Below, one piece after another: positions 850 through 37,934 of a stretch of DNA of 37,934 nucleotides (position 1 is the first letter of the stretch; each line of letters starts with the position of its first letter). The position numbers and the translations under genes were made by a program. The DNA comes from Thermoanaerobaculia bacterium (lineage in GTDB: Bacteria; Acidobacteriota; Thermoanaerobaculia; UBA5066; Gp7-AA6), in the NCBI GenBank assembly GCA_038319475.1, contig JBBQDF010000001.1, positions 1-37,934 of the forward strand, in the 5' to 3' direction. The notes below the pieces were generated by a model. That model saw only the letters and a list, made by a program, of their open reading frames with translations, did no database searches and was not told the DNA's origin.

Positions 850-878
850 TTGACTGGCAGGGATGGCGGGGGTATTAA
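850..878 (+). promoter_or_regulatory. sigma70-like rightward promoter, antisense to the leftward gene array
   Basis: -35 TTGACT (850-855), 17-nt spacer, -10 TATTAA(T) (873-879), then an ATG at 884 only 5 nt downstream. The -10 box and the downstream sequence belong to the 35-bp inverted repeat. Confidence 0.4.
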
Positions 879-898
879 TGCTCATGGAAATGGCGAAG
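864..898 (+). repeat. left copy of a perfect 35-bp inverted repeat (partner at 37614-37648)
   Basis: TGGCGGGGGTATTAATGCTCATGGAAATGGCGAAG is read on the + strand here and is identical to the reverse complement of 37614-37648. Confidence 0.95.
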
Positions 899-2071: not shown

Positions 2072-3310
2072 CTATCCTTTCGTTCGGCGCATGAAGAAGG
2101 CGACGATCGCGGCGAGCAGGACGCCCGCGCCGATGTACCAGGGGGCTTTGCTACTTGACCCCGAACCAGCGTCCGGCTTCGGGGCCGGACTCGGTGCGGA
2201 GGTAGGCGTGGCGGTGCCCGTTGGAACTGACGAGGCGGAAGGTGTCGGCGTCGGAGATGGAACGGTCGCGGTCGGAGGCGGCGCAGTGGCGGCAGGGACG
2301 GCCGTCGCGCTCGCGGTAGGCGTCGGCGAGGACGGTATCGGCGTTCGAGACGGGGCCGGTGTAGGCGTCTGGGGAAGCGGCGTCGGTGTGCAGAATAGGA
2401 ATCCTCCGGCAAAACAGGGAGTCGGCGCGGCCGATCCCCCCGCGAATGTTCGCACGGGCGTCGGGCTGGGAGCCGGCCCCGGCGTCGGGGTCGGCGCGGT
2501 CGAAACGGTCAACTGAATCTTGCCCGCCGCGGTGATGGCGATCGAGACGCCGCCCTGGGGGTCGTCGAACCGCTGCCCGGCGTGCAGATCGCCGACGTAA
2601 GCGTTGTAGCCGTCGCGGGTCAGCCGGACCGGATAGGCCGGTGAAGGTTTGGAGGTAACGAACGAATCGAGCCCGATCGCATCGCGACGCTCTACGGTGT
2701 AGAGGTTGCCGTCGGCGCGGGTTACGGAGACGGCCAGGAGCCTGCCAGTGGCGACCTCGAGCGGGGCCAGCTCGAACTCTTGCATCCCGAGCGCGGTCCG
2801 CTGCACGATGACCCGCTGCGCCCGCGTGACGGACCCGAGCTTCTCCAGCTCCCCGAACGTGGGCCAGCCCTGCGAGCCGCCCATGGTCGAATAGCGGTCG
2901 CCGCGTTCGCGCAGCTGACACCGGCCCGTCCCGTCTGAGGCGATGTCCGCAAAGCCGCAGGAGACCCCAGCCGCGTGCGAGCAGAGCAGGTAGACCATGT
3001 GAACGAACTCATGCGTGAGCGTCTCGGGGGAGAACTGCCCGTTGATCCATGCGGTATTGCCGCCATTGCAATCGGCGTAGGCCGATCCGACGTGAACCGC
3101 GCAGGGGATCGCCGGATAAACGAAGACCGTGTAGTCGCCGTCCGCGACTCCAGCAGCCCGCGCGGCGGTCCTGACCGTCCCGTTCCATGACTGGTAATCG
3201 CATTGCTTCGTAGGCGTCGGGGTCGCGAAGTGGTAGGTCGGCGCGATGGCGACCTCGAAGGTGTCCCGGCCGTAGGTGAACGTCGTGAGCCGATCCGCAG
3301 ATTCCTGCAC
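2072..3310 (-). CDS. exported HExxH zinc metalloprotease with a Pro/Thr-rich stalk and a C-terminal membrane anchor
   Basis: THEFVHMVY HExxH motif. A ~110-aa PT-rich low-complexity linker is followed by [23 protein letters not shown] (TM segment plus basic tail). The coordinates use the first canonical start (GTG 3310). The same frame upstream encodes a textbook signal peptide with no canonical start (see findings), so the true start is probably near 3433-3448. Confidence 0.65.
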
Positions 3311-4602: not shown

Positions 4603-4612
4603 CTATCCCCCT
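4600..4612 (-). promoter_or_regulatory. translation-initiation motif AGGGGGATAG-CTG (copy 1)
   Basis: This 13-nt string is identical to 32066-32078. It reads as an SD-like AGGGGGA, then TAG, then CTG. Confidence 0.5.
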
Positions 4613-5414
4613 ACGACTGGAACGGCGGGCGGGCAGCCGAACGGGTCCGGACGTTGAACTGCTCGCGCGTCTCGCCGGGGCGCGCGTCCTGCGGCCAGCA
4701 GGCAGAGTCGCCGTCGAAGTCCGCCTGAGAGCTCGCACCCTGAGACGCCGGCCTGCCGTCGAGATCCGGCTGAGACTCGCCCGGCCGCCGCGTCGCCGGA
4801 TTCGCCGGATCCACCGGATGCGCCTGAGATCTCGCACCCGGAGACGCCGCGCCCCTCGCGTCGAAGTCCGCCTGAGACTCGCCCGGCCGCCGCGTCGCCT
4901 GAAGCGGCAGATGCGCCTGAGATCTCGCACCCGGAGACGCCGGACCGGGGCCCGGAGCGGCCGGGCCGCCGACGAAGTTGCGTCGCGTCGCCGCGCTCCG
5001 CTCGTCGTACTGAGCCTGAGACTCGCCCGCCTGACGCACGAGAGTTCCCGAGGGTTCCGCCCATGGGGCCGGAGCCATGCCCGTCGGCACCTTCCCCGGA
5101 GTGCCCGGAGGGAACGTGTCCACGTGGGGGCCCGCCGCCAGATCCGCCTCGGCCTTCGCCGCCGCCGCGGCCTCGTCCCGAGCCGCCGACGCCACGACGT
5201 ATTTCTCGGCCGCCTGGGCCAGACCGCCGACGAGCTCGATCTCGGGAAGCTGATTCGGGAAGTAGTTCTCCGCGAGCTTGACGGCCTCTTCGAGCGTGTC
5301 GAGCCCTTCGATGACGGAGATCCGTCCGTCGACGATCGCGTGCTGGATCTCGTTGGCGAGGCCCGCAACCGGCGTATTCGACAGAATCTGAAACAAGAGA
5401 TTCAGGTAGTTCAT
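4611..5414 (-). CDS. hypothetical protein with internal RPGESQADFD-type repeats
   Basis: ORF-track ORF with SD AAGAGG before ATG 5414. Peptide repeats: RQAGESQAQYDER, RRPGESQADFDAR, RRPGESQPDLDGR, ARPGETREQFNVR. Confidence 0.6.
   Translation of the reverse strand: MNYLNLLFQILSNTPVAGLANEIQHAIVDGRISVIEGLDTLEEAVKLAENYFPNQLPEIELVGGLAQAAEKYVVASAARDEAAAAAKAEADLAAGPHVDTFPPGTPGKVPTGMAPAPWAEPSGTLVRQAGESQAQYDERSAATRRNFVGGPAAPGPGPASPGARSQAHLPLQATRRPGESQADFDARGAASPGARSQAHPVDPANPATRRPGESQPDLDGRPASQGASSQADFDGDSACWPQDARPGETREQFNVRTRSAARPPFQS
4770..4941. repeat. in-frame DNA repeats inside the 4611..5414 gene
   Basis: An exact 28-mer occurs at 4770-4797 and 4872-4899. An exact 31-mer occurs at 4818-4848 and 4911-4941. 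Confidence 0.85.
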
Positions 5415-5430: not shown

Positions 5431-5901
5431 TTAGGCGGTCACGGTATGTGGCACGCCGGGTTCTACTCGGCACTCGAGGTGGGGCCCGTCGGTCCACCCC
5501 GCATCCTTCTTCCCGTCACAGTCCCAGTCCAGGCCGCTGCGTAGCCCGTGCGTCTCGGCGATTGCGATCAGCGGCTCGTAGAACTCGACGTGCGTCCCGT
5601 CGTACCCGGCTCGAGTGAAGACGCCGAGATCGACCGCGTGCGCCGCGACTTCGCCATGCCGCTCCTGCGCCTGATGCCGGCTCTTATGGTTCACCCCGTC
5701 GAGCGTCGTGACGAAGTTGCCCGGCCCGATCGGCGCGAGGGTTCGGCCGACGGCGTAGAGCGCCTGCTGTTCGCGGAGATCCCGCAGCGTGTACACGACT
5801 TTCGCGTGACGCGCGGAGTCGATCGCATCGAATTCGGCGATTAATTTCGGGATGTGGTAGCGGAGGATGGAGCAGGTGAGAGACAGGTCGCGTGATGGCA
5901 T
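5431..5901 (-). CDS. endolysin, peptidase M15 (VanY / L-Ala-D-Glu peptidase-like)
   Basis: SRHQAQERHGEVAAHAVDL matches the SxHxxGxAxD-type zinc site, and the distal PHLE supplies a further His. At 156 aa, its size and its position next to membrane and lipoprotein genes fit an endolysin. Confidence 0.7.
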   Translation of the reverse strand: MPSRDLSLTCSILRYHIPKLIAEFDAIDSARHAKVVYTLRDLREQQALYAVGRTLAPIGPGNFVTTLDGVNHKSRHQAQERHGEVAAHAVDLGVFTRAGYDGTHVEFYEPLIAIAETHGLRSGLDWDCDGKKDAGWTDGPHLECRVEPGVPHTVTA

Positions 5902-5904
5902 CCG

Positions 5905-8900
5905 TTATATACCCGCCTCCTCCCCCTGATCTCCGGCCCCTTCAGGATAGAGCACCGGGACGATCGCGCGAAGTTGCTTCTTTAGCCGCTCCTGCCGCAG
6001 CGTCGGCATCTTGTCGAAATCGCCCTTCTCGTAGGCGTGCTCCAGGGAGTACTTCAGGGCCGGGCCGAGTTCGTCGCGCTCCTTGCCCTTCGAAAGATCG
6101 AAGACCTTGATCTTCTCTTCGATTGGCAGGTGTCGGAATCGCGTCTGGAGCGAGGAGCCCTGGAGATCCGTGCCGATCTGCGAGGCGTCGCGTTCGCCGA
6201 CGGTGCCGGCCGCCATCCCCTCCCGGAAGAGGCTCCGAGCCTGCTCTGGCCGGCCGAGCCGCATCGCCTTCTCCGTGTTGCGGACGGTCTGCCGACGCTC
6301 GAAGTCTTCGCGCGTCCTGGGGGCGTCCGGGGATCGCTCGGCGTTGAACCGGCTCATTTCCTTCTGCGCCGCGGTCTGAGAAATGTACTTCGGAGCCCGA
6401 GCCACCCCGCCGAAAGCGAGCGCGGACTCAAAGGTCGAGTCGGCGTTATCCCGCGCGTCCTTGAAGTTGCGGACGGAGATCGGGAGGAACTGCTTCGCGA
6501 CGAATTCGGCAAGCTGCTTCAACTGTTCGATTGCCGGGTCGTCCTCGTGCCGGATCTCCGTGTTAAAGAAATCCTTGTTCTGCCAGATGTCCGCGAGTGT
6601 GCCAATGAGCGGGTGGAGCTTGTTGCCGACGGTCTTGACGACGCCCTGCTCCTTGAACGCGGCCACGTCCTTCACGTAGGAGGGGAAGGAGCGCCGCTCG
6701 TCGGAGCCGTCCTCGTTCTTTCGGCCCGTCTTCGGAAAGAAGTAGTCCCTCTGCTCCTCCGGGGCCTTACCGGTCGAGAGGTAGTGCGCGATGCCGCCCA
6801 TCGTCCCGACGACGATCGGCAGCGCCATCGCGTAGGCCATCCGGTTCGTGAGCACGGGGTCGGTGAGCTTGCCGGCCTTCGCGTCCTTCAGCCGTTTGCC
6901 GATGGTCGCGAGATCGAAGACGGCCCCGCCGAGCTCGCGCGCGGTGCCGATGTTCCAGCCGAGCGACCGGATCGACGCCATCCCGAGATCCTTCGCCGCG
7001 CGGTTCCAGTAGAGGTTGTCGTAGACGAGTTGGCCCATGCGGTTGTCGATCGAACCCCACGCGCGGCCGAGCACGTGCCGAGTCTCTTCGGGCGTCGCGT
7101 CCGGGCCGAGTTGCTCGACTTCCCACCGGGCGAGGTCGAGGAAGGAGCCGAGCTTCTGTCGCGGAACGAGCCATTCCATCAGCGGCTTCGAGGCCGCCTC
7201 GACGAGCGCGAACGGCGCGCGGAGCCCCGCCCCGATCACGTTGCCCTGCCGCCACTCGCGGAACATCGACTTTACGGCGTCGTTCGTGTACATCGCATCC
7301 TGCCCGAAGCGACCGCCGGCCTTCAGCACGAGCTCCACGTCCGGGGTCAGCGGGCCGTCGCCCATCGCCTCCCGGATCGCGCGGCCGCCCCGGAGCACGT
7401 TGGCGACAGGGGCGAACGGAGTCGTCGCGACCGAGCCGAGTCCGCGGGCGAGATCCCCGCGCGCGATCTGCCGGATCCCGAGCGCCGTCTTCGACACTGC
7501 GGCGTCGATTGAGGTCATGCCCGCGTGGAAGGCGGAGAGCCCCAGTTGCGCCTGATTCAGGCTATTCCCCATCGCCCGCCAGCCGCGATAGAGCGCCTTG
7601 CCCTGGAGTCCCGGCGAAAGGTGGTTGTTGACGATCTGCGCGAGTTCCTTCGGCGCGGCGTAGTAGCCCTTTATCAGGAGCCCCTCCGCATCGACGGATC
7701 CCGCCCGCGTGCCGATCGTGAGCGTCGGTCGCATTTCGAGCAGAGGCGCGATCTTCGGCTCCCGGTGTAGCACATCCTCGAGCCGCGCCATGACGGTCGG
7801 AGCGACCTCGCCGAGCTTGTCGTGGTGGTTCACGAAGGCGTCGATCAGGTTCGCGATCTTCTCGGTCCGCGTGTTGATGTAGCGCCCGTATTCTGGGTCG
7901 AGTTGGGCGCGAGGCGTACCCTCGTGGCGCAGCGCAGCCAGGGCGCGGAGCTCCGAGTTGATCTTCTTGCGCTCGTCGAGCCCCACGCTCTTCGGTAGCC
8001 CCTCAACGTCACGTAGGCCGGTCACGCGGTCCCACAGGTTGAACTTGCCATCCATCGCGTGCCCGAGCTCGTGCGTCAAGACGCCAATCGTCGAGCCGAA
8101 CTTCGTGAGCACCGCATCCTTGCCGGGGAAGAACGCGCCGGCCGGGCCGTCGACGCCAGTCTCCCGGCGGGTCTTCACGCCGAGCTCGCGAGCGAGGTCG
8201 CGCAGCTTCCCGTAGAGCCTCGCATCTACCGTCTCCTCGACCGGGATCCGCGACGAACCGTAGACCGTGCCGATCTTGTCGTCGATCTTCGTCCAGTTGG
8301 CCGGCATCGGGCGGTCCACGGGGAAGTAGTCCACCGTCCCCTGCTGCTGGCTCTCCTTGAGCCACTCGTGCGCCATGACGTACTTGTCCATCTCGTGCAG
8401 CTTGCGAAGAGTCAGGTCGATCGGGTTCCAGTCCACCGGCTCAAGGCCCGCGGCGAGGCCCTCTTCGATGGTCGGGATCGTCCGCTTCTTCAGGAACGAC
8501 TTCCCGCCCTCCAGCGTCCGGCCCTGGTAGAACTCCTCGGCCGACTTTACGTCCTTCCACAGGTGCGGGAAGTAGTTCTCTATGAGCTTCTCCAGTTTGC
8601 CGGTCCCGAGCGCCCGCACCGCTGCGACACGCTCGTCCATCGCCTCTCGCAGCGCGTCGGCCGTCTTCTGGAGGCGGGGATCGCCGACGAACTTCTCGCC
8701 GGCCTCGAAGGGCTTCGTGAATTCGAGCAGGGCGGCCTTCTTCCCGATGTCGCCGATCCGGCGGTCGGCCGCGACGCGCGCGTCGTCGAGAGCGCGGGTC
8801 GCCCGCGTCGTCTTCAGCGCGAGCTCCGCGTTCTTCTGTCGGAGCGTCCCGCCGCCGATCTTCGCCGCCTCGCCTCGTGTCGCCGGGGAGAGGAAGGCGT

Positions 8901-11421
8901 GCACGTCGTCCTTCATCTGCGCGGCGGAGCGCACGGCGTCCCGTGCGACGCCCTTCACGTCGGCGGAGAGAAACGCCTCGACCGGGCCCTGCTTCTTGCC
9001 CGCGTCGGGGGAGAGCCGCGCGAGGTTGCGCCCGCCGCCGGAACCTTTCGGCCGGCCACTCTTGTCGATCTCGCCGGTCGGGTCGCGCATCGCCTTGCCG
9101 AAGTCGCCGGAGGCGCGGCCCAACCCGAGCCGCTCGGTCGGACGGGCTTCATTCGACTCGCCAGCCCGCCGCTTCAGCAACCCCTCCACCTGCTTCTTCT
9201 GCTGCTGGAGGTCCTTAATCTCGTCGTCAATCTTCCCGAGTGTCGCGCGCGGGATGTCCGAGTCCCCCGCTTCCCGAATGCGCTCGATCGCTTTTGCGCG
9301 CTGCTCAACCCAAGTCGATAGTCTGCGGTTGATGTCCGCCAGTCGTTCGCGGGCGGGCGACAAGTCCTCGGTCGGACGGGCCTCGAGGAGGTCGCGCTGA
9401 TCCCCCTTCCGGCCGTAGTCCTCCGAGAGTCCGAGCCCCTGCTGCGTGCCCTCGATCGACGGCCCGGACGGCTTCGGCCGCGGCTGGCCGATCTGCTCGG
9501 CCCGACGCTGCGCTTCAGAGGCTTCCGGAGAGAACTCCGTGATCGGCTCCTTGACGCCTTCGCGCGCCTTACGGAGGTCTTCCATCGTCGGCCGCTGGAG
9601 CCCGCTGTGCTCGAGTGCGTCCGCTTCGAGCCGCTTCTCGTGCGCGATCTCTCCTGCGCGCTCGGAAATGGGGGGAAGGCCGCTCTCGTGCTCCATGGCG
9701 GCGGAGAAGTCGCCCGTCGGCTTCGCCTTCTTCCCGTTGCCGCGCGGCAGCACGACATCCGCCGTCTCCGCCGGAACGCGCTTGACCTCGCCCGTTGCGG
9801 GGTTGCGCACGCGCAGCGTCGTCCCGTTCTCGTCCTGCGTCTTCTCGAGGATCTCGTGCCGCGTCCCGTCGTCGAGAATCGCCTCGCGACCGAGCACGAA
9901 GTCGGGCGCGGCGCGGCTCGCAACGCCGGCCGACGTGGGGTTTGCTTCATTGAGTGGAGCATGCTCGTTTCGCGCGTTGACTCCATCCGCCTCTGGCACC
10001 GCCACCTCTGCCGGCGATTGCGCCACCCGACTCTCCCGATTCGCGGGCGTCGATGCCGTGGCCTCGGTTTGGGGAGTAAGTGTGTCCGGGGGCATCACCC
10101 TCGGCTCGCTTGCCCGCTCCGGGGCCACCGCAACGACGTCCTCCAGGGCGTATCCCGGCGGAGGGGGAGGAGGTTCGCGATCCGCCTGCCGCCGCTTCGG
10201 CGTCGGAGAGCCGGGGATCTCGAGCCCGGCCACGTCCGGCGGCACCGGCACCCGGCGATCGGGCACCTGCAAGTCGTCGAGCGTAGCGGGCTTCGCGGGC
10301 GGCGCGGGCTTCTCCAGCGCCGCCCAGTCGCCCGGCTGAGGCGGCTGCTCCCGGCGAAGCTGATCCGGACGCAGCGGGGCCGGCGGCGGCGGAGGTGGAG
10401 CCGGCTCCTGCCGGAGATCGCCAGGCTGGATCGTCAGCGGCGGCGGCGGCGGAGGGGGTTCAGCGTGCTCCGGAGGGGTCGCCTGTGGCTCTCGCGGCGG
10501 CGCAGGAGCCTCTCGCCCCTTGGCCCAGTCCACACCCTTCCGACCGGCCTCTCCGACCGCTTCGTGGCCGACGGCCATCCCGCCGCTCATCGCGCCCTCG
10601 ATCCACGATTGGTAGGCCCCCCCGAGATCTCCCGCCTTCGCCTTCTCGATCCCTTCGGCCGCCTTCGACGCGGCCCCAGAAGCCATCTGTGTCTTGAACA
10701 CGGCATCCGCGGCGGTCGCGGCAGTGGCCGGGAGCTTCCCCATGCCGCCGATCAGGGCGAGGTTCTCCGGCGAGGTCAGTCCGCCGCCGACATCCGCGAC
10801 CGCCTCCCCTGTCCGTTGGAGCAGGTTCGGCGGCTGTACGGGCGTCCCCGGCGGGTTCTGGAACCGCTTCCCGATGCCGAGCACGTCGCCGCCGCTCTGG
10901 CCCATCTGCGAGATCACGGGCTCGCGGACGCCGCGGGCGGCCCGCGCGAGCGCGCCGAGCGGCGCGGCGGCTCCCGCCGTGACCTCTCGGACCTGATCGA
11001 GCGCGCCGTACCGCTCCGGGCCGAGATCCGGGGCGAACTGGGGCGGCTGGAAGATGCCGTGCGCGGCGAGCCGACGGCTTTCCTCAGCCTTCCGAGCCTC
11101 CGCCTCGCCTTGGAGTCGGGTTCGCGCCTGGAAGGCCGTGGCGGGCCGTGGTGGCTGCGGGGGCCCCTGCGCCGGGCCGCCGGCCGAGTCCTGCGGGAAC
11201 TGCGCCGGGATGGGGGCGGGGTTGAACGCGGCCTCCGCGCGCCGGAGATCGCCCATGCCGGCCACCGGAGGAGCTCCAGTCGGCAGCGCGACGACATCGG
11301 CCGCAGAGTAGCCGGGCGGGGGTGGCGGAGGACCGCCGGCCGCGGACGCCTTCGGCACCGCGACGACATCCGCGGCGGTGTAGCCAGGCGGGGGTGGAGG
11401 CGCTACCTGTTCGGGACCCAT
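5905..11421 (-). CDS. giant (1838-aa) virion-associated/polyvalent-type protein with an HExxH metallopeptidase motif
   Basis: Start taken at ATG 11421 (GGGAGCGG SD, 19-nt overlap with the upstream gene end). LTHELGHAMD lies near 8055-8075. The N-terminus has poly-Pro repeats. The ORF follows other low-complexity internal-virion-like proteins. Confidence 0.75.
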   Translation of the reverse strand: MGPEQVAPPPPPGYTAADVVAVPKASAAGGPPPPPPGYSAADVVALPTGAPPVAGMGDLRRAEAAFNPAPIPAQFPQDSAGGPAQGPPQPPRPATAFQARTRLQGEAEARKAEESRRLAAHGIFQPPQFAPDLGPERYGALDQVREVTAGAAAPLGALARAARGVREPVISQMGQSGGDVLGIGKRFQNPPGTPVQPPNLLQRTGEAVADVGGGLTSPENLALIGGMGKLPATAATAADAVFKTQMASGAASKAAEGIEKAKAGDLGGAYQSWIEGAMSGGMAVGHEAVGEAGRKGVDWAKGREAPAPPREPQATPPEHAEPPPPPPPLTIQPGDLRQEPAPPPPPPAPLRPDQLRREQPPQPGDWAALEKPAPPAKPATLDDLQVPDRRVPVPPDVAGLEIPGSPTPKRRQADREPPPPPPGYALEDVVAVAPERASEPRVMPPDTLTPQTEATASTPANRESRVAQSPAEVAVPEADGVNARNEHAPLNEANPTSAGVASRAAPDFVLGREAILDDGTRHEILEKTQDENGTTLRVRNPATGEVKRVPAETADVVLPRGNGKKAKPTGDFSAAMEHESGLPPISERAGEIAHEKRLEADALEHSGLQRPTMEDLRKAREGVKEPITEFSPEASEAQRRAEQIGQPRPKPSGPSIEGTQQGLGLSEDYGRKGDQRDLLEARPTEDLSPARERLADINRRLSTWVEQRAKAIERIREAGDSDIPRATLGKIDDEIKDLQQQKKQVEGLLKRRAGESNEARPTERLGLGRASGDFGKAMRDPTGEIDKSGRPKGSGGGRNLARLSPDAGKKQGPVEAFLSADVKGVARDAVRSAAQMKDDVHAFLSPATRGEAAKIGGGTLRQKNAELALKTTRATRALDDARVAADRRIGDIGKKAALLEFTKPFEAGEKFVGDPRLQKTADALREAMDERVAAVRALGTGKLEKLIENYFPHLWKDVKSAEEFYQGRTLEGGKSFLKKRTIPTIEEGLAAGLEPVDWNPIDLTLRKLHEMDKYVMAHEWLKESQQQGTVDYFPVDRPMPANWTKIDDKIGTVYGSSRIPVEETVDARLYGKLRDLARELGVKTRRETGVDGPAGAFFPGKDAVLTKFGSTIGVLTHELGHAMDGKFNLWDRVTGLRDVEGLPKSVGLDERKKINSELRALAALRHEGTPRAQLDPEYGRYINTRTEKIANLIDAFVNHHDKLGEVAPTVMARLEDVLHREPKIAPLLEMRPTLTIGTRAGSVDAEGLLIKGYYAAPKELAQIVNNHLSPGLQGKALYRGWRAMGNSLNQAQLGLSAFHAGMTSIDAAVSKTALGIRQIARGDLARGLGSVATTPFAPVANVLRGGRAIREAMGDGPLTPDVELVLKAGGRFGQDAMYTNDAVKSMFREWRQGNVIGAGLRAPFALVEAASKPLMEWLVPRQKLGSFLDLARWEVEQLGPDATPEETRHVLGRAWGSIDNRMGQLVYDNLYWNRAAKDLGMASIRSLGWNIGTARELGGAVFDLATIGKRLKDAKAGKLTDPVLTNRMAYAMALPIVVGTMGGIAHYLSTGKAPEEQRDYFFPKTGRKNEDGSDERRSFPSYVKDVAAFKEQGVVKTVGNKLHPLIGTLADIWQNKDFFNTEIRHEDDPAIEQLKQLAEFVAKQFLPISVRNFKDARDNADSTFESALAFGGVARAPKYISQTAAQKEMSRFNAERSPDAPRTREDFERRQTVRNTEKAMRLGRPEQARSLFREGMAAGTVGERDASQIGTDLQGSSLQTRFRHLPIEEKIKVFDLSKGKERDELGPALKYSLEHAYEKGDFDKMPTLRQERLKKQLRAIVPVLYPEGAGDQGEEAGI
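11281..11400. repeat. coding repeats PPPPPGY(T/S)AADVVA(V/L)P x2 (third diverged copy at about 10121-10176)
   Basis: Read from the translation of the giant ORF N-terminus. The third copy reads PPPPPPGYALEDVVAVAP. Confidence 0.8.
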
Positions 11422-12476
11422 CCGCTCCCGTCCCACTTCAGCTTGCCGTCCTTCGTGACGTAGGACTGGGCCGCGGCGGCCTGGGGTTTCGCGGCCGACG
11501 CGGGAGCAGGCGTCGCGGCAGGCGGCGGCGGAGTGCCGCCCGGAGTGGCCCCGCCCATCACGAAGTCCCGGAACCCCTGCTTGGAAGCCTTCCCGGCGGC
11601 CTTCGGCGGGATGAACTTCCCGCCCTTGCCGCTCGGCGGCGCGTCGCCGTGCGCGTTGAACCACTCCGTGTGATGCCCCGGATGGTCCGGATCCTTCGGG
11701 TTCGGATCTTCGACCTCGCGCGGCGTCCAGTTGGGAGTCACGTCGCGCTCCGGCCGGCGATGCCGCTCGGTGGCTGCGGCCTGAGTGTCGAGCCACTTCT
11801 CGGGCGTCATTCCCGCCGCTGCGGCGTCCTCGTAGGGTGAGCGGTTCAGGTCTTCCCGCTTCGGTCCGGTGAGCACCGCCCCCTCGGGGAACTTCGGCGG
11901 CTCGTCGCCGTGCTCGTTGAAGGCGAGCGACCCCGAGTAGTCCGGGCTCACCGGCCCCTGTGCGCCCGGCGCGGGCTTGCTGCCCGCAACGGTATAGCCC
12001 TGCATCTTCCACATCGGGTCCGGCTTCTTGTTCGCGAGCTGAATCTGCCGCTGCTCTTCCGCCTTGCGGTAGTCGATCATCGACTGGTCGGTGCGCGTCT
12101 TCTGCCGGTCCTGCCACGCCTGCCGGTCCGCGGTGTACTGGCCTTGCTTGGCCTGCTGCCGGGCCGTGCCGATCGAGCCGAGAACCGCCGCGATGGGGTG
12201 ACGAGCCCCGAGCGTCTGGAGCAGGCTCCTCCAGAACTCCGCCGTTGCGTTGCTCTTCGGAGCCTGCGGCATCGGATCGTCGCTCGATGTCGCATCCTCC
12301 GCGCGCGCGGGCCGCGTTGGAGCAGTCACGCTCGGACGGGATCCCGCCGCGCTCGCGTTGGAGTCGAAGTGCTCGTCACGCTGAGGCTGCGGCTGAAGGT
12401 CCAGCGGCGACGGCTGCGCAAGCTGCCGGCCGAGCCACGGGTATTGCGACTGCTGCGGGTCGAAAAGACTGCTCAT
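11403..12476 (-). CDS. low-complexity virion-internal-like protein (357 aa)
   Basis: ATG 12476 is preceded by TAGGAGGCGG. Track residues upstream of it overlap the preceding gene. The product is Gln/Pro/Ala-rich. Confidence 0.6.
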   Translation of the reverse strand: MSSLFDPQQSQYPWLGRQLAQPSPLDLQPQPQRDEHFDSNASAAGSRPSVTAPTRPARAEDATSSDDPMPQAPKSNATAEFWRSLLQTLGARHPIAAVLGSIGTARQQAKQGQYTADRQAWQDRQKTRTDQSMIDYRKAEEQRQIQLANKKPDPMWKMQGYTVAGSKPAPGAQGPVSPDYSGSLAFNEHGDEPPKFPEGAVLTGPKREDLNRSPYEDAAAAGMTPEKWLDTQAAATERHRRPERDVTPNWTPREVEDPNPKDPDHPGHHTEWFNAHGDAPPSGKGGKFIPPKAAGKASKQGFRDFVMGGATPGGTPPPPAATPAPASAAKPQAAAAQSYVTKDGKLKWDGSGWVPNR

Positions 12477-22998: not shown

Positions 22999-23265
22999 CT
23001 GAGAGTCCGAGCGAAAAGAGCGGGCGCAGCCGGCTCCCACACCGTCGCGGAGTGGAAAGCCGTACTGCGCCACTACAAACGTCGCTGCGTCTACTGCGCC
23101 GTGAAGTTGACCAACCGCACGGTCAGTCGAGACCACAAGGTGCCGCTCGCCAAAGGCGGGACCAACAGCATCCGGAACATCGTCCCGGCCTGTCGCTCCT
23201 GCAATTCCGCGAAGCACGTCATGTCTCACGACGAATTCCTAAAGTACAGAAAACACGGTCATTAA
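22999..23265 (+). CDS. HNH endonuclease (free-standing), apparent CTG start
   Basis: Hand translation: ...HTVAEWKAVLRHYKRRCVYCAVKLTNRTVSRDHKVPLAKGGTNSIRNIVPACRSCNSAKHVMSHDEFLKYRKHGH*. This carries CxxC...DH...N...CxxCN, the HNH signature. It is missing from the track because the only canonical start (GTG) lies after the first CxxC. CTG 22999 is the only common near-cognate start upstream. Confidence 0.65.
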   Translation: MRVRAKRAGAAGSHTVAEWKAVLRHYKRRCVYCAVKLTNRTVSRDHKVPLAKGGTNSIRNIVPACRSCNSAKHVMSHDEFLKYRKHGH

Positions 23266-24533
23266 TAGCCGGTCGGGCGTGCAAGCCCTGAAATATAGGA
23301 TCCGCGCCGCGGGTTGTCCTGGAAAATCTGGAAGCTCGAGATGAGATACCAGATGAACCCCGCCGCGAGTCCCCCGGAGGCCGCGTAGATCGGGAACACG
23401 GTATCGTTGCCGATCTGGAAGTAGTCCACTTCCTGCGAGACGGCGCGCCCCCACGAGGAGAGCGAGAGGAAGTCGATACGAGTCGGATCCGCGTGGATCG
23501 AGGACTTGATCGGGACGCCCGCCATCGTCTTCACCTTGAAGAACGGCTCGAGCGCCTGATTCGGGTCGGAGCCCTTGATGATTTCCGAGAGCACGAAGCC
23601 GATGTCTTCGTAGGCGTGCTCCTGGGCGAGGTGCATGTACGCGACGAGATCGTCGGGCACGCCGTCGTTGCCGAGCACGAGGCGAATCTTGTTCAGCGCG
23701 AGTCGGACGTGAGTCGTCGTCAGCGCCGCGCTCCCCGCAACCACTTCGGGCGTCCGGATCTCGGGGTACGTGGCCCGATTGAGGTTGAGCCACGTGCCGC
23801 TGTTGGCCGAGCTCTGATGGTAGGGAATCCCGAAGAGAGACTGAGCCGTTCCGGAACCCGCGATGATGCCCTGGATGGTGATCACGTCGCCGGTCGCGGT
23901 GCTTGTCGCGATGACCGAGACCGTGACGGTGAGGGCCGCCGGGTCGATCGCCGTGACGATCATGGTGCCCGCCGCGTCCGATCCGCCCCCGGTGCGCTTG
24001 GTGGTCAGCGCCGCGGAAGTGAACGCGTAGATGTACTGACCCGAGTAGAACAGGGACGTGCCGAAACTGCCGGAAACCGTGATGACCACGCCGGCCACCG
24101 AGGCGACGGTCGCGAGGATGCCTCCGCCAGAGGTCTGACAGAGGACATCGAGTGCGGTGCGCATCTGCTTCATCGCAGATTTCGTCTCGCGCTGGACGAT
24201 TTTCTCGATGCCCTTCTCCGACGTGTTGGTCGAGATGTCCGTCTTCTTGGTGAGTTCCACGGCAAACTTGAAGTCCACCGGAGTCAGCGTGGCGACTTCG
24301 TAGAAGCTCGCCCCGCCGCGACCCATGTCGCCGCCGTCGAGAGACACCTGCCCGAACGATCCGCCGGGCCGAATCGCGAGTGGAATACGCATCGCTCGCG
24401 AGGAGACGGTTTCCTCGTCGGCCTTTTTCTCCAGCATGGAATAAAACGTGTCGTCGCGCTCGTAGAGGAGCGGGAGCTTGTCCCGGACCTTCTCGAGCTG
24501 CGTCGCCACGGTGTCTGCGTTGATCTGTGCCAT
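23262..24533 (-). CDS. major capsid protein (HK97-fold type)
   Basis: 423 aa, located directly after a scaffold-like gene, with GAGGATAG-ATG initiation. The composition and length are typical of tailed-phage MCPs. The call rests on context and overall resemblance, not on a searchable motif. Confidence 0.7.
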   Translation of the reverse strand: MAQINADTVATQLEKVRDKLPLLYERDDTFYSMLEKKADEETVSSRAMRIPLAIRPGGSFGQVSLDGGDMGRGGASFYEVATLTPVDFKFAVELTKKTDISTNTSEKGIEKIVQRETKSAMKQMRTALDVLCQTSGGGILATVASVAGVVITVSGSFGTSLFYSGQYIYAFTSAALTTKRTGGGSDAAGTMIVTAIDPAALTVTVSVIATSTATGDVITIQGIIAGSGTAQSLFGIPYHQSSANSGTWLNLNRATYPEIRTPEVVAGSAALTTTHVRLALNKIRLVLGNDGVPDDLVAYMHLAQEHAYEDIGFVLSEIIKGSDPNQALEPFFKVKTMAGVPIKSSIHADPTRIDFLSLSSWGRAVSQEVDYFQIGNDTVFPIYAASGGLAAGFIWYLISSFQIFQDNPRRGSYISGLARPTGY

Positions 24534-34021: not shown

Positions 34022-35533
34022 TCAGAACCGCCTCGGCTTGGGCCGGAACGGCGCGTTGCTCGACTGGATATTCCCCTGCATCCTCACCCGCATTGCCAAC
34101 ACATTCGGATTCGCCGGCAACACGAACGACACTGTACCAGTCCCCTCGTCGATCACCTTGTCGCTCACCGCCTCCTTCATCCGCTCCTCCGCCGGCTTGT
34201 GCGCCTCCAACAGCGCCGTCATCAGCCCGTACCGCGCCATGTCCAGCGGGTCGTCCCCGTCAAACTTCAACAAATCTTCCGGATGATCCGGGTCGTGCAC
34301 CGCGGCCGGAATGATCTCCAGCAGATCCTTGCAGCCCGAACCGATCACGAACCGCCCGTTTAATATCAGGTCGTACATCGCCCGCCACCCGTTCACCCGA
34401 TCCGTCACCGCCGGGGTCGGAGCCGGGAACCCGTACGGCCGCAGCTCCTTGGTCAGCCGCTGCGCGATCGTGTTGCCGTCGCCTTCCGTCGCGAACGCGT
34501 CCGGGGAAAGGTAGAACCGCCGGAACGACGAGCCTTTCTGCCCCGCGATCGCCGCCTGCGTCCGCACCATCCGGGCCAGGGCGGCCACGTCGTGATGCCG
34601 CACCGAGACGCTGTGAGTCAGGAAGTAGTGCGTCGCATCCGACGCGAAGAACCCGAAAGACGCCGGGTGTTCGAAACCCCAGTCCATCGCAATCCAGCGC
34701 CGATGCCACGGCTGGAGTCCCATCGCGTCCGGGTCCGACACGCCCGTCTCCGGGTCGAAGCAGTCGAAGTACTGCCCCTCCATCGCGTCCCAGTCACCCA
34801 TGCGCCACGCTCGGAATAGCTTGGGCCCGCCTACCGCCGCGAGCCGGGATTCGTAGCCGGGATCGTTGAGGTGCAAGAGCGCGTTGTCGTCGAGGCTCGC
34901 CGGGATGAAGCACTGCGTGTGGAACAGGTCCGGCCGCTCCTCGATCGGCACGACGCGGATGATTCGCCACGGGCCGGGATCGACGTACCGCTTCTTGACC
35001 CAGACGTGGCCGGGCCCGCCGGGGTTGCCCGAGGAGATCCGCCGGCAGGGGACGCCGTAACGCGATCGGACCGATCCCCACATGAAGTCAAACGGCTTAG
35101 GATCCTCGAAGTTGCCGAGCTCGTCGAAGTAGACGCGGGTGTACGCGCGGCCCTGGTGTTTGCGAGCGTCTTCGATCGTTTCGAGCGAACGGAATCGCAG
35201 AGTCGCTCCACGAGCCAGAGTCCACCGTCGCTTCTGCACCTCGAAGGTGCCGCCCAGTAGCGGGTAGATCTCGGCCGCACGGGATTCCACTTCTTCCAAC
35301 TCGTCGAGGTTGCGCCGGAAGAGCACTCCGCGGGCGTGCCGGCCGTACTCTGTCCCGTGGATCGCGAACTCTCCGAGCTCGAGGTCGGTCTTGCCGCCGC
35401 CGCGAGCGCCGCCGTAGAAGAGATCCTGAGCAGGACACTCCACCGCGGCCGACTGGGGCCCAGGCTGCGGACACCATGCGACGACACGGGTCGCGTCGGC
35501 ATCAGTTGGCCTCGTGCTCGTCGTCGTCCCCAT
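34022..35533 (-). CDS. terL: terminase large subunit
   Basis: Walker A YGGARGGGKT, Walker B RVYFDELG, and a C-terminal nuclease-like region. ATG 35533 is preceded by GGTGAGGA (the track start GTG 35545 lies 4 codons upstream). Confidence 0.85.
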   Translation of the reverse strand: MGTTTSTRPTDADATRVVAWCPQPGPQSAAVECPAQDLFYGGARGGGKTDLELGEFAIHGTEYGRHARGVLFRRNLDELEEVESRAAEIYPLLGGTFEVQKRRWTLARGATLRFRSLETIEDARKHQGRAYTRVYFDELGNFEDPKPFDFMWGSVRSRYGVPCRRISSGNPGGPGHVWVKKRYVDPGPWRIIRVVPIEERPDLFHTQCFIPASLDDNALLHLNDPGYESRLAAVGGPKLFRAWRMGDWDAMEGQYFDCFDPETGVSDPDAMGLQPWHRRWIAMDWGFEHPASFGFFASDATHYFLTHSVSVRHHDVAALARMVRTQAAIAGQKGSSFRRFYLSPDAFATEGDGNTIAQRLTKELRPYGFPAPTPAVTDRVNGWRAMYDLILNGRFVIGSGCKDLLEIIPAAVHDPDHPEDLLKFDGDDPLDMARYGLMTALLEAHKPAEERMKEAVSDKVIDEGTGTVSFVLPANPNVLAMRVRMQGNIQSSNAPFRPKPRRF

Positions 35534-35876
35534 CGAGGTCCTCACCGCCCGTGTAGCGCCGATTCCACTCGTCCGGCGTCAGCTGGCCCGGAGACACCAC
35601 GACCGCGTTGCGATGGTCGTCGATCTGGAGCGCCTGTGGAGCCTGCCCGAACCGGCGGTTGTTGTACTCCTTGGCCGCCGTCACGTCGCCGGCACAGCCG
35701 AGCTCGTAGAGCTTGAGCAGGATCTTCGTGTCGTCGATCAAACCCCTCGCGTCGAGCTCGTCGAATATCTGCCGCAACTTACGGGCCCGAAGGCCGGGAG
35801 AGCCAGGAGGCCGGCCGAGCCGGTCCGAACGGTCCTGTTTGGGCTTGGGCGCGTCTCCGGCCGGATCGTCGCTCAC
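35502..35876 (-). CDS. terminase small subunit-like protein
   Basis: Lies immediately upstream of and overlapping terL. The helical KLRQIFDELDARGLIDDTKILLKLYELG segment is present. Start placed at GTG 35876, just after the tRNA-like element. The 209-aa track version (TTG 36131) would read through that element and is Arg/Ser/Pro-rich. Confidence 0.5.
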   Translation of the reverse strand: MSDDPAGDAPKPKQDRSDRLGRPPGSPGLRARKLRQIFDELDARGLIDDTKILLKLYELGCAGDVTAAKEYNNRRFGQAPQALQIDDHRNAVVVSPGQLTPDEWNRRYTGGEDLDGDDDEHEAN

Positions 35877-35895
35877 CGGGCCGCCTGGGGTGGAA

Positions 35896-35967
35896 TGGTG
35901 GCGGGGGCGGGATTTGAACCCGCTCCTCCGGGCAGATGAAGCCTGGATCGCTCCGAAGCGCCCCGCG
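35896..35967 (-). tRNA. initiator-tRNA-like element (anticodon CAU), non-canonical D arm
   Basis: Minus-strand RNA: CGCGGGG-CGCUUCGGAGCG-AU-CCAGGC-UUCAUCU-GCCCGG-AGGA-GCGGG-UUCAAAU-CCCGC-CCCCGCC-A-CCA. It has a perfect T arm, a 6-bp acceptor stem with an unpaired 1:72, and an encoded CCA. The D arm is replaced by a 4-bp/tetraloop hairpin, the anticodon stem has an A-C mismatch, and position 37 is C. Confidence 0.45.
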
Positions 35968-36238
35968 TCTGACGATCGCCGTCGGGCCCGCGAGGTGTCC
36001 AAGCTCCCGCCCGGCCACGAGAGCGTCCGCAGCCCATCGCAGCCGGGTGAGTGGTCAGCCCGCGAAAGGGGCCGACGGAGGGGTGTCTCATCCGGTCCGA
36101 CCAGTCTGAGGCGAGGAGTTTCCGCCGTCAAGACCTTTTAGGGGCGAACGAATTGCGCGCTAGGCTACAACGGGATCGACGGTTGCGGCCAGTGCTCCGA
36201 TGAGGCTCGGGCTTCGTGTGGAAACGAAGTACCCAAAA

Positions 36239-36278
36239 GCGGATCAGAATCGAACCGACGGCCGCCGCTCACATCCGC
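36239..36278 (-). other. T-arm-like hairpin followed by a T4 run (degenerate tRNA fragment or weak terminator after the MTase gene)
   Basis: Minus strand: GCGGAU-...GUCGG-UUCGAUU-CUGAU/AUCCGC-UUUU. It has a GGUUCGAUU T-loop consensus and a 6-bp outer stem. Confidence 0.25.
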
Positions 36279-36330
36279 CTCGATAGGAGCTAGGCACGGT
36301 TCGCCCGCCGCGGCTCCGACCTGATCCGTC

Positions 36331-37578
36331 CTACCGCACCGCGGTTACGTCGAACTCGAACAGGTGCTTGTTGGAGTTCCGTTTGCGAAGTGTCTCGATT
36401 CGAACGTTACGGAACCCTAACTTCTCAAGCATCTCAGCGTAAATGTTCTCGACGGGGACGACCACGCCGTAGAATGTGACGTTCCCGACGATGTAGTGAA
36501 CCACGCCTCCTGGCCTGATGACTCCCTTCACAGATTGAATGTGCGTCCAGATATCCTCGAAGTATTTGGCCACGTAAGTCGCCAAGAGGTCTCGGTTCTC
36601 GCCGTTCGTCTCTCGGATCGCTGCAAGGGAAGAACCGAGGATTCGGGGAACGAAGCTCTTGCCACTTGGTCGCCAGCCGATCAGTCGGCTTGTTGCGACG
36701 CCCCAAGTACCGCCGATGGCCGTCCAGTCGAGTTCAGCGGCTGCGCGGGCCTCATTGAGGAAGCCCAGCCAGTACATGTAGGGCCGAAGCTCTCGGATGT
36801 AGGACATCCGGTTTGGGTAAGGAGGTGAGGTAATGAGCAGGTCATATTTTCGAGAGACTAGGCCCTCAAGCTCACGAGAGTCTCCTTCGATGACCTCAGC
36901 GGCTCCGACTGGATTCGTTGCAGCACCAGCGAGGACGGTGGCAACGTCTTTTGAGAACTGATTTGGGATGTCGTGGTCGACGCCGAACATTGGTTGCTGT
37001 GCTGACCTTCCATCTTTGAACGACATCGACTGATGATTGAACGCGGCGTTCGAACTTGTGATGATGGTTCGGCAGAACGCAATCCGCAGCAGATCGCCTA
37101 CGGGCGTTCTGAGTCGAGTTGTTGCTTCGAGCGACGTCCTCAGTCGGCAAAGCTGAGTCAGAGTGTCCGAGGGCCACCAACGCTGGATGTTGGCCAAGGG
37201 TGGTGGGGCGCCCGGCTCTTCTTTCTCGTCACTGCAGCGCTGAACGATCTCCCGAGCGAGCGCCGCAGCGCCAGAGAGGACCTCATCGCAATACTGAGCT
37301 AGCTTTGCACGACCGAACCAGACGAGGAACGGATTGATCTCGATAGATGTCGCGGCACGGCCGAGATTGGCGGCGCACAAAGTTGTCGTCCCAGTTCCTG
37401 AGAAAGGATCCAAGACGACAAGCCCCGAAGCGCCGGAGTTCAGGATCTCCTGAACGATTTTTACTGAATACGCCGGGGTAAGCCGCAGCCAGCCGTGTCG
37501 CCCCGCGGATCGGTTGTACTTGAAGGTCAACTCTGCCCGCTGCCCGACCCGTTCCCGTTCGTCCTGAGTGAGGCTCAC
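36331..37578 (-). CDS. DNA methyltransferase (N4-cytosine or N6-adenine; SPPY motif IV, FxGxG motif I N-terminal)
   Basis: VLDPFSGTGTT (AdoMet motif I), then ~190 aa, then LLITSPPYPN (catalytic motif IV). No cognate nuclease gene is nearby. The gene is visibly less GC-rich than the rest of the window. The GTG start overlaps the TAG of a leader mini-ORF. Confidence 0.8.
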   Translation of the reverse strand: MSLTQDERERVGQRAELTFKYNRSAGRHGWLRLTPAYSVKIVQEILNSGASGLVVLDPFSGTGTTTLCAANLGRAATSIEINPFLVWFGRAKLAQYCDEVLSGAAALAREIVQRCSDEKEEPGAPPPLANIQRWWPSDTLTQLCRLRTSLEATTRLRTPVGDLLRIAFCRTIITSSNAAFNHQSMSFKDGRSAQQPMFGVDHDIPNQFSKDVATVLAGAATNPVGAAEVIEGDSRELEGLVSRKYDLLITSPPYPNRMSYIRELRPYMYWLGFLNEARAAAELDWTAIGGTWGVATSRLIGWRPSGKSFVPRILGSSLAAIRETNGENRDLLATYVAKYFEDIWTHIQSVKGVIRPGGVVHYIVGNVTFYGVVVPVENIYAEMLEKLGFRNVRIETLRKRNSNKHLFEFDVTAVR

Positions 37579-37628
37579 TACGTTACTCCGGTCTCAGTAG
37601 CACTTGGAGGACACTTCGCCATTTCCAT
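37578..37628 (-). other. 16-codon leader mini-ORF (MEMAKCPPSATETGVT) coupled to the MTase start
   Basis: ATG 37628 lies 5 nt after the TATTAAT box of the right inverted-repeat copy. Its TAG overlaps the MTase GTG (TAGTG). The first five codons are part of the 35-bp repeat. Confidence 0.3.
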
Positions 37629-37648
37629 GAGCATTAATACCCCCGCCA
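37614..37648 (-). repeat. right copy of the perfect 35-bp inverted repeat (partner at 864-898)
   Basis: The reverse complement of 37614-37648 equals 864-898 exactly. Confidence 0.95.
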
Positions 37649-37651
37649 AGC

Positions 37652-37714
37652 TGGAGCCGACGGCCGGACTTGAACCGGCGACCTGCGGTTTTCCCGCGGG
37701 CAAGACCACTAGCC
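37652..37714 (-). other. partial tRNA-like element (T arm + 3' acceptor strand + U73 + CCA; no matching 5' acceptor strand)
   Basis: Minus strand: ...GGCUAGUGGUCUUGCC-CGCGG-GAAAA-CCGCAG-GUC-GCCGG-UUCAAGU-CCGGC-CGUCGGC-U-CCA. The T arm and 3' end are canonical (Gly-like GCUCCA end). A GAAAA-capped hairpin replaces the anticodon arm. GCCGACG is absent upstream. Confidence 0.4.
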
Positions 37715-37758: not shown

Positions 37759-37788
37759 TTGACGAGATGCCTGCTAGCACGCTATCGT
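37759..37788 (+). promoter_or_regulatory. weak sigma70-like promoter facing the right window edge
   Basis: CCCTTGACG (-35 at 37759-37764), 18-nt spacer, TATCGT (37783-37788). It has the same CCCTTGAC context as the promoter at 850. Confidence 0.2.
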
Positions 37789-37934
37789 GCGGTCAGGCCG
37801 AATCCGATTTGGGCTGGACGTACCCCTGTTTGCGCGACGCGGTCCGCGCGCACGGTCTCTCCAGCTGAAAAGTCGGATAGGAACGTACCAGTGTGGCGGG
37901 GGGAGGCCCCCGAAAAAAAAAGTTTTTAATTTTG

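Follow-up and report, generated by a model that had tools for sequence, protein, structure and literature searches.

A perfect 35-bp inverted repeat in a predicted temperate phage of the Thermoanaerobaculia: possible re-use of a promoter core between a probable attP core and a methyltransferase gene

Introduction

Morons are foreign genes with a promoter of their own which are carried by prophages and, in the lambdoid phages, often lie near the att sites. Here we analyze a similar arrangement on contig JBBQDF010000001.1 of a Thermoanaerobaculia bacterium (Acidobacteriota; assembly GCA_038319475.1). The window, i.e., the whole stretch of DNA analyzed, is this one complete contig of 37,934 bp held at NCBI, and the phage genome on it is incomplete. 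Near its two ends the window carries the copies of a perfect 35-bp inverted repeat, the left one in a control region and the right one between a probable phage attachment site (attP) core and a DNA methyltransferase gene. As in the case of morons, this gene is of lower G+C content and of non-phage type, it is located at the edge of the genome beside attP, and a promoter-like element of its own stands ahead of it. Unlike in morons, however, this element is not foreign but an exact 35-bp copy of the putative promoter core in the phage's own control region, no terminator was identified after the methyltransferase gene, and the cassette is visibly truncated at its 5′ end.

Two related promoter–operator modules in inverted orientation, PL/OL and PR/OR, are known to flank the immunity region of phage lambda. 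The repeat resembles this layout in that two related cores of opposite orientation point outward from the early/immunity arc and could potentially answer to one repressor. The lambda modules, however, are similar rather than identical and each has a −35 box, multiple operators and a real operon, whereas here a −35 box is missing from one copy, and the other is directed at an operon's 3′ end. Antisense or convergent promoters are also familiar from phages (oop of lambda, sar of P22 and the face-to-face promoters of 186 and P2). By its placement the left copy, too, would yield a predicted RNA complementary to the terminal genes of a long operon, but none of these systems involves a second identical promoter elsewhere.

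Short inverted repeats further delimit invertible DNA segments such as the G segment of Mu (Gin/gix), the C segment of P1 (Cin/cix) and the Hin/hix segment of Salmonella. There too, repeats of about 26–34 bp bracket a block, and one of the two orientations would join a promoter to genes. The gix, cix and hix sites, however, are dyad-symmetric around a 2-bp core, the invertase is encoded adjacently, and the segments measure 1–4 kb and carry tail-fibre or flagellin genes; we found none of these features in the window. Inverted duplications of gene size have also been described at inversion breakpoints in Drosophila, where they are attributed to staggered breaks (Ranz et al. 2007; PMC1885836). 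In our case, too, each end of a block bears one of two sharply bounded, oppositely oriented copies of what was formerly a unique sequence, but the gene order of the relatives gives no sign that this block has been inverted.

Results

The inverted repeat

The 35-mer TGGCGGGGGTATTAATGCTCATGGAAATGGCGAAG is found at 864–898 on the + strand (left copy, X) and at 37614–37648 on the − strand (right copy, X′). The two copies match without a mismatch, exactly as the original prediction had it, and no such pair arose in 100 shuffled sequences. With up to three mismatches allowed the window still contains these two matches, whereas the shuffles lead one to expect none. The repeat is the longest and the sole perfect inverted repeat of the window; all others are 28–40 nt long and 70–86% identical. 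We found no third copy in the window at up to 13 mismatches, and sub-blocks of 14 nt do not recur elsewhere in the window except for one chance match of 12 out of 14 nt. The identity ends sharply at both edges, the flanks being unlike each other as had been noted, and beyond the 35 bp the surroundings of the two copies have no similarity that rises above noise. A resemblance of 12 nt between 946–957 and 36329–36318, just past the methyltransferase cassette, is at noise level (E = 15).

Direct reading of the 35-mer reveals ATTAAT as its only internal palindrome, the motif TGGCG at both ends, 26 nt apart, and outer ends of the form 5′-TG ... CA-3′. Each copy carries the box TATTAAT and an ATG, at 873–879 and 884–886 in the left copy and at 37633–37639 and 37626–37628 in the right copy. 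Box and ATG are separated by 4 nt and not by 5 nt as originally given. The deposited junctions read TTGACTGGCAGGGA-35-mer-GTGGGCCGAAGGAAA and CGTCGGCTCCAGCT-35-mer-TGTCCTCCAAGTGC, or in short form A-X-GTGGGCC and CCAGCT-X-TGTCCTCC. If the block in between were inverted, they would read TTGACTGGCAGGGA-35-mer-TGTCCTCCAAGTGC and CGTCGGCTCCAGCT-35-mer-GTGGGCCGAAGGAAA, in short GGCAGGGA-X-TGTCCTCC and CCAGCT-X-GTGGGCC.

The deposited assembly could be compared with a Logan contig (L008; contigs other than the window are designated by L numbers) assembled with k = 31 from SRR19962011. This contig of 3,931 bp corresponds to positions 4797–869 of the window at 100% identity and stops exactly 30 nt, i.e., k − 1, inside the left copy. 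A de Bruijn graph stops in this way when a second predecessor exists for the next 31-mer, and the stop therefore indicates a branch at a repeat of at least 31 nt. We conclude that the reads themselves contain the repeat and that it did not originate in a single assembler; an assembly artefact had been a concern of the original prediction. The stop says nothing on which outer flank is paired with which inner flank.

Beyond the window, neither the 35-mer nor its 24-nt core gave a match in IMG/VR, in the JGI metagenome contigs or in the GTDB genome contigs, and the left 4 kb had no blastn match among the GenBank phages. Exact look-ups of the ribbon–helix–helix (RHH), the 139/89-aa and the methyltransferase proteins returned no record other than the source contig. 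The original prediction had proposed to look for further copies in related phage genomes, but the 35-mer is absent from all relatives found: those retrieved via the methyltransferase, the exonuclease, the RHH protein, the 412-aa protein or the terminase contain neither the 35-mer nor a comparable inverted repeat. Two other origins of the 35-mer were tried and ruled out. It does not represent host DNA 3′ of the tRNA-Thr gene, i.e., a prophage boundary, as all 48 of 48 host loci are unrelated downstream of this gene, and it is no part of the methyltransferase cassette, the homology of which begins only after the repeat.

The left copy and the control region

The left copy corresponds to positions −20 to +15 of a complete promoter-like element, which we call P_L. 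It consists of TTGACT (850–855, +), a spacer of 17 nt, TATTAA (873–878) and, after 5 nt, the ATG at 884. In agreement with the original prediction a good −35 box is present at the left copy only; it is located 17 bp upstream, and the right copy has none.

P_L is divergent from the promoter of an Arc/CopG-like RHH gene (582–758, −; 58 aa), the first gene of a leftward early operon. The RHH protein matches PHROG 3180 (Arc-like repressor) with an E value of 2e-7 and Pfam RHH_5 with an E value of 9e-5, the latter under the curated cut-off, and it resembles the RHH protein of a leaderless gene in the related contig L009 (E = 1e-5). The promoter, P_RHH (765–793, −), comprises TTGACT (793–788), 17 nt, TAGGCT (770–765), 6 nt and the ATG at 758, and is a predicted leaderless early promoter. 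Comparable elements are seen in the relatives: L010 has a leaderless small gene with TTGACA-17-TAGGAT-6-ATG and a similar upstream AAATAGTT motif, and the RHH gene of L009 has TACGAT-6-ATG. P_L and P_RHH are arranged back-to-back on opposite strands, with the −35 box of P_RHH some 55 bp further left. The −35 boxes enclose three tandem direct repeats of about 9 nt, TTTGGACGA, TTTGTCGAT and TTTGGACGC (800–826, +), and the motif TTTGGAC occurs in the window only at 800 and 818. These repeats are probably operators and candidates for binding of the RHH protein.

Downstream, P_L points at the stop codon of a 66-aa gene, 52 nt away, and is antisense to this gene and to the adjoining exonuclease gene. 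A weak terminator-like hairpin (982–995) is located about 100–120 nt past P_L; hairpins of this kind are equally frequent in shuffled sequences. An RNA extending from P_L to this hairpin would have a predicted length of about 110–120 nt. When both transcripts and the late-operon 3′ end were folded, no structure surpassed the shuffles and no convincing terminator emerged. Rfam finds nothing at the left copy and no family at threshold anywhere in the window.

The right copy, the attP core and the methyltransferase cassette

On the − strand the right copy is preceded by a stretch of 40 nt (37652–37691, −) which represents the 3′ part, from the anticodon loop to the CCA, of a tRNA-Thr(CGU). These 40 nt are identical to the tRNA-Thr(CGU) in seven contigs of Thermoanaerobaculia/Acidobacteriota metagenome-assembled genomes (MAGs; L018, L021, L025, L034, L040, L043 and L057). 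We regard this block as a probable attP core, and a homologous tRNA fragment is located beside the integrase in L007 and L005. The identity to the tRNA-Thr(CGU) of this group points to the host group, and the phage thus appears to be a temperate phage of soil Thermoanaerobaculia/Acidobacteriota that belongs to a poorly known group of phages. Between the attP core and the end of the contig (243 nt) no integrase was found. The core forms the last part of a degenerate tRNA-like stretch of full length (37723–37655, −), which scores 21.3 bits with the Rfam tRNA model against a cut-off of 29, and ARAGORN calls no tRNA there.

Partial copies of the same tRNA gene also occur in bacterial genomes. The Thermoanaerobaculia MAG SMAG_U14427 (L015, L024, L053) contains a single intact tRNA-Thr(CGU) together with two 3′ partial copies beginning in the anticodon loop, and L032 has one intact and one partial copy. 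The partial copies are likely to mark the boundaries of other prophages at the same integration site.

Read on the − strand, the order of the elements is attP core, 3 nt (GCT), 35-mer, 1 nt and methyltransferase cassette. The cassette (36327–37612, −) consists of the methyltransferase open reading frame (ORF; 36331–37578) and of 34 nt (37579–37612) of the 3′ end of a former partner gene. It shares 79% nucleotide identity with L059/L060, and the homology extends exactly over 37612–36327. Its G+C content is about 57% compared to 65% elsewhere, i.e., about 8 points lower. The closest homologs (79% and 63% identity) are found in non-phage operons behind a partner gene of 243–268 aa (L059/L060 and L061), in restriction/defence-like surroundings with HNH, toxin–antitoxin and M78 peptidase genes. 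Foreign composition, non-phage relatives and sharp homology boundaries are those of a captured cassette, which appears to have been acquired horizontally and to be truncated at its 5′ end, with the loss of the upstream partner gene and of its own promoter. The right copy would then be a 35-bp patch at a recombination joint, its two edges falling on two unrelated joints, the attP core and the truncated foreign cassette. The original prediction had noticed neither the attP core 3 nt away nor the foreign cassette 1–2 nt away.

A leaderless ORF of 16 codons, MEMAKCPPSATETGVT (37578–37628, −), begins in X′ and ends at a TAG which overlaps the GTG start codon of the methyltransferase (TAGTG). A GGAG is located 7 nt upstream of this GTG, and the same TAGTG stop/start joint also couples the two genes in L059.

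The cassette is followed by a non-coding stretch of about 435 nt (35877–36330, −) which separates the methyltransferase gene from the packaging genes. Here a second promoter-like site, TTGACG (36131–36126), 17 nt and CAGACT (36108–36103), is present. ARAGORN reports a tRNA Met-CAT at 35896–35969, ending in GCCACCA, and an 83-nt Arg-CCT at 36235–36317 in this stretch, both of which score below the Rfam threshold. A further Logan contig, L072, ends at 36151.

Gene order in the relatives

The exonuclease-like protein has relatives at 61–80% identity. In L009 (80%) the late genes are followed by the exonuclease, small genes, a tRNA fragment, a leftward integrase and more leftward genes. A divergent region comes next and is the starting point of the rightward genes, namely the leaderless CopG-like RHH gene, an HTH_17 gene and the early ones. 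L005/L004 and L007 (61–68%) are organized in the same way, the tRNA fragment being one of tRNA-Thr and the integrase clearly of the tyrosine type. L010 (79%) has its leaderless small gene directly after the late genes and no lysogeny module. In L009, L005, L007 and L010 the early genes are located downstream of the late array and are co-directional with it, as in the present contig, and none of the four carries the 35-mer.

In L009, L005 and L007 an attP–integrase–(repressor) module, which the original prediction had also missed, is located between the late end and the RHH/early operon and is divergent from the RHH gene. The matching slot of the window holds P_L alone. Because of this correspondence P_L would be the positional equivalent of the promoter of a lost lysogeny module.

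Other features of the contig

The contig has a G+C content of about 65%, and by analysis of the G+C content at third codon positions (GC3 frame analysis) all credible genes run leftward. The order from right to left is methyltransferase (36331–37578, −), the rightmost gene of the array, the non-coding stretch, the packaging genes including the large terminase (34022–35545, −), the major head protein (23262–24533, −), virion-sized proteins of no known function, endolysin (5431–5901, −), a 412-aa protein, the exonuclease-like protein and the 66-aa protein. The exonuclease-like gene (1155–2069, −) encodes an RNase H fold (Pfam RNase_H_2; PHROG 403), and its match is to the DNA-polymerase exonuclease families PHROG 403/17. 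The acidic/basic 66-aa gene (951–1151, −; gene calls on L008) marks the end of the late array. Beyond the left copy the early operon continues from the RHH gene with an 89-aa gene (137–406, −; GC3 frame analysis; called product P0052) and a gene cut by the contig end (1–140, −), the ATG of which (140–138) overlaps the stop of the preceding gene. The statement that the repeat brackets the entire leftward array has to be corrected, because these three genes are also leftward and located outside; the bracketed block runs from the methyltransferase to the exonuclease. The pair of 35-mers separates this "late" block of 36.7 kb from an early arc which is only partly seen. In a circular genome the repeat would bracket the unseen early arc as well; no direct or terminal repeats that could close the contig to a circle were found.

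Most of the virion-sized proteins have no family match, the lineage being poorly represented in the libraries searched, and for the largest ORF of 2,070 aa (5905–12117, −) there is no Pfam match. The 412-aa protein (2072–3310, −), encoded upstream of the exonuclease-like gene, contains the HExxH-type motif HEFVH and has no match in Pfam, PHROGs, NCBIfam or the PDB sequences. In L005/L007 a small HExxH protein (HEFSH) directly follows the exonuclease gene. Within an ORF of 267 aa (4611–5414) there are tandem repeats of about 100 nt with 80–88% identity (4700–5040, −). L008 breaks in these repeats, and its first 78 nt also match a second register at 86%.

The gene cut by the left contig end begins with MRVKHTPGPW. 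In the viral contig L001 (4100–4280) a gene with a similar TPGPW motif is located just upstream of a methyltransferase homolog, and such genes may form a common family of small early-region genes. At the other end of the contig a rightward promoter-like TTGACG-18-TATCGT (37759–37788, +) is followed by the G/C hairpin GGGGGGAGGCCCCC and by A9/T5 runs up to position 37934. This element (37759–37934) could represent either a terminator or a small RNA, and perhaps the assembly stopped because of its homopolymers.

Discussion

The analysis described here rests on one contig without close relatives. The pair of 35-mers most likely records the re-use of a promoter in a genome rearrangement rather than the ends of a transposon or a dedicated inversion switch. 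More specifically, and with a confidence that we would call moderate, we favour a recent copy-and-paste of the phage's core promoter, which would now drive the captured methyltransferase gene and of which the inverted layout would be a by-product. The 35-mer would be the core, from about −20 to +15, of one of the phage's own sigma-70-like leaderless promoters, and its parts would be the A+T-rich −10 element TATTAAT, a transcription start about 5 nt downstream on the ATG and 15 transcribed nucleotides. We infer that the left copy is probably the resident one. P_L would today be an orphan which has lost its lysogeny module and fires antisense into the 3′ end of the late array. A single recent event could have copied the resident core to the joint of the truncated cassette and the phage, beside attP. 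The right copy would there supply the cassette with a −10 element, a start site and an AUG, from which the 16-codon frame leads to the coupled start of the methyltransferase. It would most likely drive the methyltransferase gene, a moron next to attP, and perhaps downstream late genes too. After integration the cassette would be located directly behind the reconstituted tRNA-Thr gene, and both promoters would answer to whatever binds their shared core. Of the three explanations offered originally, the anatomy of the locus is in keeping with the duplicated promoter module and with part of the rearrangement scar, whereas a site of the Gin/Hin type finds no support. The convergent sense/antisense control suggested along with the first of them may also operate.

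Several observations weigh against the favoured reading. The right copy has no −35 box; the equivalent positions read CGTCGG/GTCGGC and are located inside the tRNA fragment. TATTAA and ATTAAT each match TATAAT at four of six positions, and a strict consensus scan, in which A at position 2 and T at position 6 are required, calls no promoter at either copy. The same scan, however, also misses P_RHH, although the layout of P_RHH is kept in L010 and L009, and the scan therefore appears to be insensitive in this lineage. Even if the right copy is active, it may not drive the late array, given the TTGACG-17-CAGACT site between the methyltransferase and the packaging genes. Conservation lends no support to a function, since the 35-mer is absent from every relative and public collection searched. 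The copies agree in both of their boundaries to the exact base, which fits a single mechanical duplication better than regulatory selection. The favoured reading also does not by itself explain a copy-and-paste of exactly 35 nt; templated filler at an end-joining junction is one possible source of such a patch. Finally, as the genome is incomplete, an integrase, a repressor or another recombinase may be encoded in the unseen arc.

The precise boundaries and the 100% identity are what one mechanical event would produce, and the repeat could also be the scar of one past inversion: the ends of staggered breaks with an offset of 35 nt at one breakpoint would have been filled in before being rejoined, and neither the repeat nor its layout would have a function. 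In a single step this would explain why the junctions A-X and X′-cassette look "old", the one as a complete promoter and the other as a promoter joined to the cassette, and why the other two look arbitrary, and inverted duplications at inversion breakpoints are documented in Drosophila (PMC1885836). We nevertheless consider the scar unlikely: the ancestor which it implies has an early operon divergent from the late array, opposite to what is seen in four of the four relatives examined, and the uninverted order with a single copy is not seen in L009, L005, L007 or L010. These are distant relatives with 61–80% amino-acid identity in one gene, and the test of the inversion order is therefore weak. 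The scar would moreover leave unexplained why a breakpoint fell exactly on a promoter core, and the staggered-break model has been established for eukaryotic chromosomes; we know of no phage example of such an inverted duplication. Alternatively, the block may not have been inverted once but may still be able to flip. The two copies would then be crossover sites at which the 36.7-kb late block, or equivalently the unseen early arc, is inverted by a recombinase from the unseen part of the genome or by RecA or a phage annealase acting on 35 bp of homology. Such a flip would set the complete P_L, −35 box and RHH operators included, before the methyltransferase–late array and bring the late end beside attP. 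A perfect inverted repeat of a length typical of the boundaries of invertible segments is in line with this, and so is the fact that the only copy with a −35 box faces the wrong end of the array. A flip would bring the exonuclease and the small genes up against the tRNA fragment in antisense, as in L007/L005, the incomplete genome leaves room for a recombinase gene, and the k = 31 graph is ambiguous at the repeat node, although a break of a k = 31 contig at the left copy is expected for any repeat. Among the 30 ORFs of the window, however, no domain of an invertase, resolvase or other recombinase was detected, and half-sites with dyad symmetry about a short core are absent from the 35-mer. That the deposited contig is continuous across both copies speaks against a mixed population, the family as represented by L009, L005 and L007 typically has the present orientation, and the edges of the right copy on two unrelated joints look like a patch and not like an evolved site. 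This makes inversion at the 35-mers clearly improbable. A stronger version, in which the 35-mers are the crossover sites of a genome-scale developmental switch with its recombinase in the unassembled arc, we judge to be very improbable indeed. Its "off" state would be the deposited arrangement, with the late array on a core without −35 box and P_L antisense, and in the flipped "on" state P_L and the RHH operators would drive the methyltransferase–packaging–virion–lysis array. Rare unprogrammed flipping is plausible, as 35 bp suffice for occasional homologous recombination, and under the favoured reading, too, the repeat could permit such an inversion.

Instead of being copied as a promoter, the 35-mer could be a binding site of one protein, the RHH protein, an excisionase or the arm-binding domain of an integrase, that is shared by the control region and the P′ arm of attP and couples excision or immunity to late control. 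The right copy is located 3–38 nt from the attP core, where arm sites are expected, the left copy is located in the control region beside the gene of the RHH repressor, and the two TGGCG motifs 26 nt apart would fit such a site. However, the 35-mer does not include the obvious repeated motifs of the control region (TTTGGACG), and the surroundings of the right copy lack them. Arm sites also tend to come as several short sequences rather than as one block of 35 bp, and there is nothing similar beside the homologous attP of L007/L005. This explanation has no direct support and is a doubtful one. One might suspect the assembler of having created a copy or of having wrongly joined inner to outer flanks, since the outer flanks, with the genes of the A side and with the C side, and the methyltransferase gene are found in the deposited contig only and not in the Logan assembly of SRR19962011, and at k ≤ 35 the repeat node has two ways in and two out. 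But a gene in the interior of the block is likewise missing from the Logan assembly, so that absence there is weak evidence, and L008 would not stop at k − 1 unless the reads contained these 31-mers in a second context as well. Since 35 bp are far below the length of Illumina reads and the final k of common assemblers, a double mis-join is presumably rare, and there is little probability that the repeat is an artefact. The outer TG ... CA and a length of 35 bp within the range of terminal repeats of insertion sequences and Tn elements recall the ends of a transposable element or of a Mu-like phage, an idea which the original prediction had itself doubted. The flanks GGCAGGGA and AGCTGGAG share no direct repeat and hence no target-site duplication, and, as was also stated originally, there is no transposase or invertase domain in the 30 ORFs, nor any match to a DDE transposase, MuA/MuB or another recombinase. 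The relatives are phages that integrate by a tyrosine integrase at a tRNA attP, and the right end is located 3 nt from the attP core with its inner edge on the cassette joint. Transposon or Mu-like ends are rejected on these grounds and are the least credible explanation of all.

The copying of a promoter core to a captured cassette thus remains the reading that we favour. Such a connection of a foreign gene, by means of a promoter core of the phage itself that is duplicated exactly and in inverted orientation right at the attP core, would be a variant that we have not seen described. In the phages of the Thermoanaerobaculia/Acidobacteriota no promoter or switch has been characterized so far. 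If the favoured reading is true, the locus would be a case, resolved to the base, of a temperate phage that wires a new gene into its own regulation by means of a 35-bp copy of a promoter core. A host-protective or anti-restriction methyltransferase would thereby have come under the same control as a promoter of the immunity region, and an orphan promoter would have been left behind, aimed at the end of the late operon.

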